The notes under the pieces were generated by a model. The model searched no databases and was not told the DNA's origin. It was given only the letters and a program-made list of their open reading frames with translations. Shown here in pieces: positions 1 to 2,180 of a stretch of 64,000 nt of DNA. How positions within the stretch are numbered: the first letter of the stretch is position 1; each line of letters starts with the position of its first letter. The translations under genes and the position numbers were made by a program. Source of the stretch: Candidatus Bathyarchaeota archaeon (lineage in GTDB: Archaea > Thermoproteota > Bathyarchaeia > Bathyarchaeales > Bathycorpusculaceae); assembly GCA_963827165.1 (NCBI GenBank), contig CAWGZR010000004.1, forward strand, positions 160,001 to 224,000, read 5' to 3'.

Positions 1-863
1 ATGGCTTTTCTTACGCCTAAGTTCATATCCCATTCATTGGGGTATTCTATTGGGCAGGCGTCTTTGCATTCTCCGCAACCCGTGCATTTTTCGGCCATAA
101 CATATCTCGGGTTCTTGCGAACTTTAACTCTGAAATTGCCTACAAAACCCTCCACCTTGAGGATGTCCGCATTGGTTATTACTTGGACCTTAGGATGGCG
201 CAATACTTCCACCATCCTAGGTCCTTCAATTCATATGCTGCAATCCAAAGTTGGAAAAGTCTTGTCGAGCTGCGCCATGTGTCCGCCTATGCTCGCGTTC
301 TTCTCGACAAGGTATACCTCGAACCCCATATTCGCCAAATCCAAAGCAGAGTTGATACCGGCAATACCGCCGCCGATAACCAAGGCGTTTTTGGTTACAG
401 GGACCTCCATGGTTTCAAGGGGCTTGAGCAACCTCGCCTTGGCAACGGCCATCCTTATAGTATCTTTTGCTTTTGCTGTGGCTTCTTTAGGATCATTGGG
501 ATGGCACCATGAAGCGAACTCACGTATGTTCGCCATTTCAAACACATAAGGATTTAGTCCTGCTTCACTTACAGTTTTTCGAAATGTTGGCTCATGCATC
601 CTTGGGCTGCAAGCAGCCACGACAACACGGTTTAATTTGTGTTCTTTTATGGCTTTTCTGATTTCTTCTTGTCCCGGGTCAGCGCAAGTGTAGCGGTTTT
701 CTTTAACATAGACTACGTCAGGTATGGTTTTTGCGTACTCGGCGACTGAGGGTACGTCCACTGTGCCTGCGATGTTCATACCGCAGTGGCAGACAAAAAC
801 GCCGATCCGCAGTTCTTCTGGTTTTTGAGTTTCAGGTTGTTTTTTGGCTTCTGGATTGCTCAT
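1..863 (-). CDS. hdrA: Heterodisulfide reductase subunit A, N-terminal part (runs off window start); in-frame TGA at 233-231 read through
   Basis: [26 protein letters not shown], Rossmann GGGIAG and [11 protein letters not shown]; past the TGA the same frame continues [21 protein letters not shown]...[18 protein letters not shown]...[13 protein letters not shown] to the window edge. Confidence 0.95.
185..224 (-). promoter_or_regulatory. Putative recoding (SECIS-like) hairpin inside hdrA, starting 6 nt after the UGA
   Basis: mRNA GGACCU-AGGAUGG-UG-[GAAGUAUUG]-CG-CCAUCCU-A-AGGUCC: 13 Watson-Crick pairs plus U.G and G-C, with one bulged A. Confidence 0.6.
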
Positions 864-1792
864 TTCACTATCTCCTCAAAGTTGAGTCTTTTGGAAACTG
901 CTTTGCGCCTGTTCTCGCCGGCTCGAGCTTTCAACTCTTTAACAGCATCAATGTGTGATGTTAATCTTTCTAATGATTTGTTCCAAGCACCCGAATGAAT
1001 GGGCGTATGACGCACTGCTGTGCGCTTAACCTTTAATGCTTCATCGATGGGGCAAATATTTTTGCACGCGCCACAGTAGGTACAGAACAAATCGTTAACA
1101 TGAACCTTCTTGTCGCTGAGCGTTAGCGCTCCTGGAATCGGGCAGACGTCAAAGCAATCGGTGCAACCCTCGGGACATTTCTCCTGAGCGATGGCGATTA
1201 CTCCTTCAAAGGCTTTTTTGACCTTTATCGCGCCTGGACTGCATTTGAACTCGCATACTCTGCAAGTTGGGCAGTAATCCTTCTTGATGTCGAGGCTAAC
1301 CTGAATGCGTGCTTTGAAGCTAGGGGAAGAATCCGCAATGTTTTCGACGGGTTTGCCGTCAAAACCAACTTTCGACACTGTTATCAACCCGAATGGACAG
1401 GCGGCTTCGCATTCAACACATTCTTTAGGGCACTTGGAGTTATCCACTTTTATGTCCCGAACCAGCTGAGGGTAGCTGTCTTTCGCCAAGACAGAGAGGT
1501 CATGATTCCCATTTAAAGTAACCTTGATGGCGCCGTAGGGGCATGTGACGTCGCATATTCCGCAGAAATTACATTTAGCCAAATCAACATCAACTTTGGC
1601 TTTTTTAGTTTTTTCTCCGGCGTTCTTTGGCTGTTTTTGCGTTGTTATTGCCTCTTTAGGGCAGGCCAACATGCAAATTTGGCAGCCGACGCACCGTTTC
1701 TTGTCGAGAGTTAACTTGTAATTCTTAACTTGTAAATCCCACTCTAATGTTAAGGCATCTGCCGCATCCTTCTTTATGGTTTTAAACGGCAT
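860..1792 (-). CDS. Polyferredoxin (FwdF/MvhB-like multi-4Fe-4S protein)
   Basis: Six CxxCxxCxxxC(P)-type motifs; ATGA overlap with hdrA; ATG 1792 follows a GGTGG RBS (ORF track starts at 1816). Confidence 0.85.
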
Positions 1793-2180
1793 ATCTTTCC
1801 ACCAAGGGCTCTCCAAGCCGCCGAACAGAACACCAATGGCGGCTAACAGTTTAATTGGTAGGACTTAAAGTGCTTTTGATATAAATATTGCTTGAACAAA
1901 AACGTGCTTTCTACCATCAAAAACACCGGAAAAGAGTTTGTTTAGCTGACGGAATAGGTTTTAGATTTTATGTGTTTGTTTTTGAATCTTTGTACCCTTG
2001 TCCAACCTTTCCGCGCCCTATCTAAACCCAGTTTAAGCCATAAACCAGAAAATAGCCTAAAGTTCAGAAAAACTTCTGCGGCTGAAATTGTGAAGGCTCC
2101 TCTAGCTATGTCCTCGGTTGGCTTTCTTTGACGCCTATCTGATTTGATGAGCGTTGCCTTTTTTGGCCTTTTATACCATA

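Follow-up and report, generated by a model that had tools for sequence, protein, structure and literature searches.

The 64,000-nucleotide (nt) stretch of DNA analysed here, called the window throughout, comprises positions 160,001 to 224,000 of contig CAWGZR010000004.1 of a Candidatus Bathyarchaeota archaeon. It opens on the gene hdrA, which encodes a fused HdrA-MvhD protein and contains two in-frame TGA codons. We conclude that both UGAs very probably encode selenocysteine (Sec). Close relatives of the gene keep both TGAs, genes of a sister type have cysteine (Cys) codons at the same two sites, and the source genome is shown, at the level of its genes, to encode a complete Sec pathway of the archaeal/eukaryotic type: SelD, tRNA-Sec, a probable PSTK, SepSecS and aSelB. 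We further propose that each UGA would be recoded with the help of its own hairpin, which starts 6 nt downstream within the open reading frame (ORF), and that the gene would descend from an old duplication. Taken as a whole, this explanation of codon, pathway, signal and history is in our judgement highly likely to be the best one. In what follows, G000 is the source genome and C-numbers are its contigs, the window being G000:C4:160001-224000; L-numbers are related loci or public contigs, and other G-numbers are related genomes.

Two UGA codons and the predicted machinery to read them

The window holds the 5' part of hdrA; the full gene in the contig has 835 codons, ends in TAA and encodes an HdrA-MvhD fusion. 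Its first TGA, codon 211, stands in the context DCSI-U-IEGP, and with TGA read as U the frame remains open up to the window edge. The second, codon 681 (C4:158821-158823), lies in the MvhD/FlpD domain within the motif FMCNW-U-GYAGAD. The fusion scores 1083.9 bits against the NCBIfam model HdrA2 (NF040770, cut-off 1100) and 151.7 bits against Pfam FlpD, and it matches chains A and D of PDB 5ODC with E-values of 4.7e-252 and 4.6e-37. The Pfam and PDB alignments run uninterrupted across both TGA codons, and U211 falls, in a gap-free alignment, on residue 197 of the HdrA structure (5ODC chain A). It corresponds to the Sec site around residue 200 (CxxU, in the thioredoxin-reductase domain) that is described as the canonical HdrA position in Sec-using archaea (Mariotti et al. 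2016, PMC4989117). In HdrA, Cys197 is lent by one protomer as a ligand to the other's N-terminal FeS cluster (Chadwick et al. 2022, PMC9012536). Sec211 would take the place of this Cys, which in the solved HdrABC-MvhAGD complex ligates the N-terminal [4Fe-4S] cluster of the partner protomer, and Sec681 would be part of the CNWC motif of the fused MvhD domain.

Are the two TGAs genuine? Two DNA runs, each from a different study, have assembled contigs that cross codon 211 with 0 differences from the window (X1 record 2, 34-404; X2 record 19, 1-326); one of the runs may be the source sample itself. Two RNA libraries, which stem from two further studies, likewise have contigs across the codon, and none of their listed differences falls at 231-233; such libraries can contain DNA. 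Stronger evidence, for both sites, comes from a comparison of related genes. We aligned 15 distinct full-length genes of the Sec type and 27 distinct genes of the Cys type. TGA is found at both sites in all 15 Sec-type genes, which are 83-93% identical to that of G000, and TGC or TGT at both sites in all 27 Cys-type genes, whose site-2 motif reads CNWC-S/A-YAG. Among the first set of 10 Sec-type genes, from which the identity averages were taken, mean protein identity is 87% and four-fold sites are 63% identical (range 49-78%), which shows purifying selection on the protein encoded 3' of each TGA.

In a set of 41 related genomes, G000 included, the best hdrA match contains the two TGAs only in G000 and G009, and none at these sites in the remainder. 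For SepSecS, the count is 10 of 120 genomes at genus level and 13 of 401 sampled genomes, spread over 6 of 131 genera, at class level. In total, 17 SepSecS-positive genomes were found in the class. A Sec-type hdrA is present in all 13 that belong to the family of the window (f1, two genera); in 11 it is full length and bears both TGAs, and in 2 it is fragmented over contigs or by frameshifts. None of the 4 SepSecS-positive genomes of other families has one, and the HdrA of three of these, G039, G336 and G170, carries Cys at both sites where matched. TGA is otherwise an ordinary stop in G000, where it ends 236 of the 844 ORFs of at least 350 codons. When the best 20 in-frame-TGA candidates genome-wide were inspected, a Pfam domain extended across the TGA only in hdrA; the other 19 represent neighbouring genes in one frame or show no domain at the junction.

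In two related long-read metagenome-assembled genomes (L107 and L114) the two hdrA TGA sites lie in different frames, probably through assembly indels. Three contigs titled Nanoarchaeia, Limnocylindrales and Sulfotelmatobacter (L108, L109 and L115) carry a Bathyarchaeial Sec cluster and a Sec-type hdrA with 84-86% identity to the window protein, and are for that reason probably mis-binned.

The genes for tRNA-Sec, SepSecS and a PSTK-aSelB fusion all lie 0.8-4.5 kb downstream of hdrA, outside the window. The tRNA matches Rfam RF01852 over its full length with 64.5 bits (gathering score 47) and has a 9-bp acceptor stem, a 6-bp D stem and a 4-bp T stem. The SelB part of the fusion reaches 275 bits with TIGR00475, over the cut-off, and contains the Pfam domains GTP_EFTU, D2 and aSelB_III. 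The PSTK part scores 122 bits with Pfam KTI12 (cut-off 22), and its fusion to SelB is a context that fits the published Bathyarchaeota form. SelD is encoded on contig 3 in a Cys form (HGCSCK; NF010705, 337 bits, over the cut-off). Contig 11 adds SepRS (477 bits) and SepCysS (553 bits), both over their cut-offs, so that, judging from its gene content, an indirect Cys-tRNA pathway coexists with the Sec system in G000. SepRS and SepCysS are divergently adjacent (G000:C11:18130-20946), and tRNA-Cys(GCA) genes are located at C11:22547 and C11:43879.

The machinery, the TGAs kept in 15 orthologues and the TGC or TGT codons of the 27 Cys-type genes together argue for Sec rather than for an error. The original prediction, made from the letters of the window, fares well here. 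The in-frame TGA at 231-233 and the frame open to the window edge are borne out by the ORF and its translation, and its view of the CxxC position of HdrA as a Sec site agrees with the canonical site cited above. A substitution error, which it had called unlikely, is hard to reconcile with two TGAs kept in 15 distinct orthologues and with two agreeing DNA-run contigs. The alignment of related hdrA genes that it proposed splits cleanly into TGA/TGA and Cys/Cys forms. Its proposed check of mvhD for a UGA at a Cys position finds a counterpart in codon 681 of the fused MvhD domain, and of the genes that it suggested to look for, selD, SepSecS, selB and tRNA-UCA are present, as is a probable pstK. 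Recoding in this lineage, left undecided between Sec and Cys, is now supported as Sec by the machinery and by TGA/Cys pairs at both sites.

Candidate signals inside and outside the gene

What marks these two UGAs for recoding? Both are followed by a candidate hairpin in which the first loop base is G. In a synonymous scan of the 15 Sec-type genes, windows of 15 codons were scored, and the top 14 of them all fall at or directly after the two TGAs (columns 213-217 and 676-684). In these windows, same-residue pairs have a codon identity of 0.87-0.92 as compared with a gene-wide window mean of 0.667 (standard deviation (sd) 0.07; z 2.9-3.6), whereas the equivalent windows of the 27 Cys-type genes have values of 0.42-0.52 around a mean of 0.448 (sd 0.058). 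In the 15 genes, almost every substitution sits in a loop, in the bulge, in the end pairs of a stem or immediately beyond it; L128 has one broken internal pair. The hairpins are also stable: the minimum free energy (MFE) is -26.9 kcal/mol at site 1 (z -5.74, 0 of 200 shuffles as good) and -22.1 kcal/mol at site 2 (z -2.74, 2 of 200 shuffles as good). The hairpin is absent from Cys-type hdrA genes, in which 87-nt windows at sites 1 and 2 have a mean MFE of -16.1 and -24.9 kcal/mol, compared with -29.5 and -35.3 kcal/mol in Sec-type genes. Beside site 2, the residues that differ between Sec-type and Cys-type proteins (G for S, R for L, T for I) are encoded inside the hairpin, as would be expected if RNA structure had shaped the sequence.

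Ranked by the stability of the next 54 nt, the two sites take places 6 and 12 among the 2924 in-frame TGAs of the genome. Of the 8 better-ranked candidates that were listed, each has at least one flank whose coding score is close to zero or negative, and the majority lie in a GC-rich stretch of contig 10. This stretch (G000:C10:1-30000) has 52-63% G+C compared with 44.5% for the genome, holds most of the very stable hairpins that follow TGAs in non-coding frames, and may be foreign DNA or a mis-binned piece.

A partly independent hint for a signal within the ORF comes from selD. In other families of the Bathyarchaeia, four distinct SelD sequences have an in-frame TGA at the catalytic Cys (G-U-[SK]CK[LV]P), and in three of the four a hairpin follows 6 nt after this UGA. 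Two genes, 77% identical as proteins, share an identical 30-nt hairpin, with spacer and 3' flank differing, and the Cys-type selD of G000 has no hairpin.

Archaeal SECIS (Sec insertion sequence) elements are placed in 3' untranslated regions (3' UTRs) in the relevant sections of a 2026 review and a 2024 ISME J paper, sections that do not mention Bathyarchaeia (PMC13188914, PMC11227280). One candidate of this kind was a 45-nt block conserved directly after the stop of Sec-type hdrA, which looked like two hairpins; in a hand-drawn structure 81% of the cells were paired, as opposed to 38-47% in slid controls. RNAalifold gave no consensus structure for the block, and the MFE of the 121-nt 3' region was no better than that of shuffles (z -0.27). 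A covariance model built from it, R1, matched G000 as a whole at the hdrA site alone, with four further hits at E 2.6-4.8, none of which follows an ORF. R1 also matches Cys-type hdrA within its MvhD coding region. Translated, the block gives a peptide resembling MvhD, and it is missing in L115, where both TGAs and both hairpins persist. In five loci, tblastn identifies the DNA after the Sec-type stop as the decayed 3' third of a Cys-type hdrA, beginning at about residue 710 and broken by stops and frameshifts (E 7e-11 to 1.7e-4). The tblastn and R1 matches together with L115 indicate that the block is a relic of Cys-type hdrA and not a SECIS. A Loki-type AUGA-stem-GA element and a hairpin about 50 nt after the stop were rejected as well, as they occur only in some relatives and belong to a coding remnant ('GACHLP').

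Other searches returned little. By eye, no GAA/A-bulge or AUGA...GA structure was seen after hdrA. An Rfam search at a permissive threshold over the Sec cluster and window positions 1-1200 gave only tRNA-Sec and, as noise, a single RsmY hit of 11.5 bits. Upstream of the polyferredoxin gene that precedes hdrA, a box resembling a B recognition element and TATA box (BRE/TATA) is the sole block conserved within 400 nt, which leaves no 5' candidate there. Position, stability, a synonymous constraint specific to Sec-type genes and the lack of an alternative signal are the reasons why we see the in-ORF hairpins as recoding signals, a reading that these comparisons favour somewhat. For Bathyarchaeia with a PSTK-aSelB fusion in general, we think it evenly balanced whether they use one in-ORF hairpin 6 nt after each UGA and no 3'-UTR SECIS, the reader being perhaps the fusion protein or the ribosome.

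Alternative readings and the history of the gene

Several observations weigh against the interpretation given so far. Individual sequences (L128, L110 and L115) depart from the stems at a few pairs, and the 15 Sec-type genes show no compensatory base changes in the hairpins because they are too alike, so that support for the hairpins consists of conservation and stability. In selD, the hairpin of G170 is weak (-4.6 kcal/mol). The Pfam scan of PSTK-aSelB revealed no bacterial SelB C-terminal SECIS-binding domain, and a SelB part with archaeal domains alone leaves an in-ORF hairpin without a known reader. A divergent 3'-UTR SECIS could have escaped the searches. The PSTK part, with 141-144 bits, stays below the curated cut-off of 290.5 for TIGR03574 (E 3e-41, model positions 1-228 of 249). 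At a completeness of 94.5%, a second hdrA or more selenoprotein genes of G000 may be unassembled. Finally, the evidence for Sec is comparative throughout.

How else could the data be explained? The UGAs might encode Sec under the control of a true SECIS outside the ORF, in an archaeal form that goes unrecognised, with the hairpins serving as enhancers, for pausing or for mRNA stability. This is possible, though we consider it distinctly less likely than signals within the ORF. In its favour, the reviews at hand place all experimentally studied archaeal SECIS in UTRs (PMC4989117, PMC13188914, PMC11227280), eukaryotes combine a 3'-UTR SECIS with a UGA-adjacent hairpin, the Sec codon redefinition element (SRE) named in Mariotti et al. 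2016 (PMC4989117), and the aSelB of G000 comes without bacterial SECIS-binding domains according to Pfam. It has to contend with first 45 nt after the stop that are a Cys-hdrA remnant, missing in L115, which keeps both TGAs and both hairpins, and of which the genome holds no second copy; upstream, conservation is limited to the BRE/TATA-like box, and neither Rfam nor inspection by eye produced a known SECIS form. Hence in-ORF hairpins with Sec at both UGAs remain the explanation that we prefer.

That UGA is read wholly or partly as Cys, for instance by SepSecS working without selenophosphate, appears improbable. SepRS and SepCysS are present with scores over their cut-offs, and Mukai et al. 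(2022, PMC8762117) discuss such cross-talk, suggesting at the same time that the PSTK-aSelB fusion prevents it. SelD and SepSecS are intact and over their cut-offs, and it is difficult to see five dedicated genes and two UGAs being kept merely for Cys when TGC or TGT would do, as in the Cys-type paralogue. Least credible of all is an artefact or broken gene, be it through sequencing error, as a pseudogene or as three genes with their ends at the TGAs. On the side of an artefact, the original prediction reports breaks of the indel type in further genes of the window, and hdrA is frameshifted in the two long-read assemblies L107 and L114. Yet contigs of two studies agree with the window, both TGAs recur in 15 genes under purifying selection, Pfam and PDB alignments cross both codons, and a split at codon 211 would cut the DCSIC motif with its cluster-ligand cysteine.

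Sec at both UGAs also fits into a history of duplication and loss. An intact Cys-type hdrA lies 290-385 nt downstream of the Sec-type gene in three loci (L127, L128 and L132), L111 has a Cys-type gene beside a partial Sec-type one, and G000 contains a single hdrA match at E<=1e-50. In a quick maximum-likelihood tree with SH-aLRT (Shimodaira-Hasegawa-like approximate likelihood-ratio test) support, the 15 Sec-type genes form one clade (100), sister (98) to 18 Cys-type genes of the same family, and both clades are nested among Cys-type genes of other families of the order. Its root was set at the midpoint, which falls among two distant HdrA outgroup rows, and it does not settle whether Sec replaced Cys or Cys replaced Sec. 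Taken with the remnant and the pairs of Sec and Cys genes in tandem, the tree suggests that the gene was duplicated near the family's base and that copies were then lost differentially. The Sec-type gene would be an old paralogue of the Cys-type hdrA that once stood in tandem behind it. Most species would have retained the Cys copy alone and dropped the Sec genes, and G000 would have retained the Sec copy alone, so that its sole detected HdrA would need selenium.

Relation to known systems and further features

The original prediction knew of no description of recoding in Bathyarchaeia. This impression does not hold: Sec systems with a PSTK-aSelB fusion, SepRS and SepCysS have been reported for 'diverse Bathyarchaeota' (Mukai et al. 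2022, PMC8762117), and the system is taken up again in a 2022 review (PMC9499178). The former paper reports the fusion for one Archaeoglobus, too. As in that Bathyarchaeota system, PSTK is N-terminal and aSelB C-terminal in one ORF, SepRS and SepCysS occur in the same genome, and SepSecS and tRNA-Sec are clustered with a Sec-using gene. The tRNA-Sec differs in that the U6:U67 mismatch is absent and the eighth acceptor pair is a C:U mismatch instead. The two-Sec HdrA-MvhD of this soil/peat Bathyarchaeon is an addition to a trait already published for the lineage. The main text of Mukai et al. 2022 contains 0 occurrences of 'SECIS' and of 'HdrA', and its figures or supplements may already depict hdrA; relative to that main text, the in-ORF hairpins and the Cys-hdrA remnant are new. 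The accessible text of a 2017 Mukai paper does not use the term 'SECIS', and what is accessible of the literature on Bathyarchaeota or archaeal Sec and SECIS describes neither a Bathyarchaeota SECIS nor an archaeal in-ORF SECIS. The codon-adjacent hairpins are probably a new variant of archaeal Sec decoding.

Methanococcales, Methanopyrus and Lokiarchaeota likewise have Sec around residue 200 of HdrA, Sec in an MvhD/VhuD module and linked hdrA and vhuD genes, and for Loki it has been suggested that several UGAs share one signal (Mariotti et al. 2016, PMC4989117). In contrast, HdrA and MvhD here form one polypeptide with one Sec each, one hairpin follows 6 nt after each UGA, and neither a GAA/A-bulge archaeal SECIS (aSECIS) nor an AUGA-stem-GA lokiSECIS was seen after hdrA. 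VhuD-type proteins have two Sec positions about 50 codons apart; the FlpD/MvhD domain here holds one UGA, codon 681, which may correspond to one of them, and no further TGA. With the bacterial SECIS (bSECIS; PMC4989117) the hairpins share the position in the ORF directly 3' of the UGA, the number of one per UGA and a G that is first in the loop. The biosynthetic route is unlike that of bacteria, in that it proceeds through PSTK and SepSecS (no search was aimed at SelA), and the aSelB-like factor lacks bacterial SECIS-binding domains. Eukaryotic SREs resemble the hairpins in being conserved in-ORF elements that lie a few nt 3' of a Sec UGA, but they work in combination with a 3'-UTR SECIS, and none was found here.

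If signals within the ORF and no 3'-UTR SECIS are indeed the rule in these archaea, the UTR rule for archaeal SECIS would fail for a whole class. Archaeal chemistry would then be combined with a bacterial placement of the signal, the position of SECIS would be more fluid in evolution than thought, and this would bear on the relation between the bacterial and the archaeal/eukaryotic arrangements. The archaeal SECIS-binding factor was described as still unknown in 2016 (Mariotti et al., PMC4989117), and short codon-adjacent signals next to a PSTK-aSelB fusion offer a new handle on it. Tandem Sec and Cys hdrA genes, with copies lost differently by species, provide a natural series on selenium dependence in uncultured soil archaea. 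For annotation there is a practical warning: an hdrA of this kind will be called as three fragments.

Table 1 Location of hdrA, its candidate signals, the Sec genes and neighbouring features
Feature	Location	Strand	Description
hdrA, 5' part (287 codons)	window 1..863, rest off-window to C4:158356	minus	ORF and translation
UGA codon 211	window 231..233 (plus strand TCA)	minus	in frame in the ORF starting at 863
Candidate in-ORF recoding hairpin, site 1, 40 nt	window 185..224	minus	15 bp, one bulged A, 9-nt loop, 6 nt 3' of UGA-211
Candidate hairpin, site 2	C4:158784-158814	minus	10 bp in three steps, symmetric GA/GA internal loop, 5-nt loop, 6-nt spacer
Cys-type hdrA remnant in G000	C4 ~157990-158355	minus	just 3' of the hdrA stop
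tRNA-Sec(UCA)	C4:157457-157540		~0.8 kb downstream of hdrA; ARAGORN and Rfam RF01852
SepSecS	C4:156169-157434		TIGR03531 488 bits, over cut-off; Pfam SepSecS 388 bits
PSTK-aSelB fusion, 731-aa ORF	G000:C4:153706-155901 (L007:1231-3426)	minus	PSTK residues 8-241, SelB 277-642 plus ~90 C-terminal residues
Polyferredoxin gene, 318 aa	window 860..1816	minus	first of operon; Pfam Fer4 families
BRE/TATA-like box	window 1878..1894	minus	~65 nt upstream of polyferredoxin start, kept in 15 Sec-type loci
selD in-frame TGA	L152:15993-15995 (G039); L153:7565-7567 (G230); L154:7145-7147 (G170); L158		

Further selenoproteins were sought in G000. No in-frame stop was found in SelD, in three [NiFe] hydrogenase large subunits or in a second MvhD gene, PF00384 had no match in this genome, and the TGA candidates with stable hairpins looked non-coding. 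The Pfam check of the best 20 in-frame-TGA candidates disclosed no selenoprotein besides hdrA, a check by which small proteins or those with Sec near a terminus could be missed. In another genome, G170, an in-frame TGA at L154:4509-4511 (G170:C8, minus strand) lies in AHCD-U-GSCT, in a frame that is open for 116 codons before and 108 codons after it. We take this frame to be a possible member of the 'UGSC' selenoprotein family.

Opposite to the remnant and the region behind it, a 172-codon ORF (C4:157726-158244) has no Pfam match and may be spurious. On the other side of hdrA, the TGA stop of the polyferredoxin gene overlaps the hdrA ATG. This gene is present in all 18 other Sec-type loci searched, with 62-81% identity, and the BRE/TATA-like box in front of it is likely the promoter of a polyferredoxin-hdrA operon.

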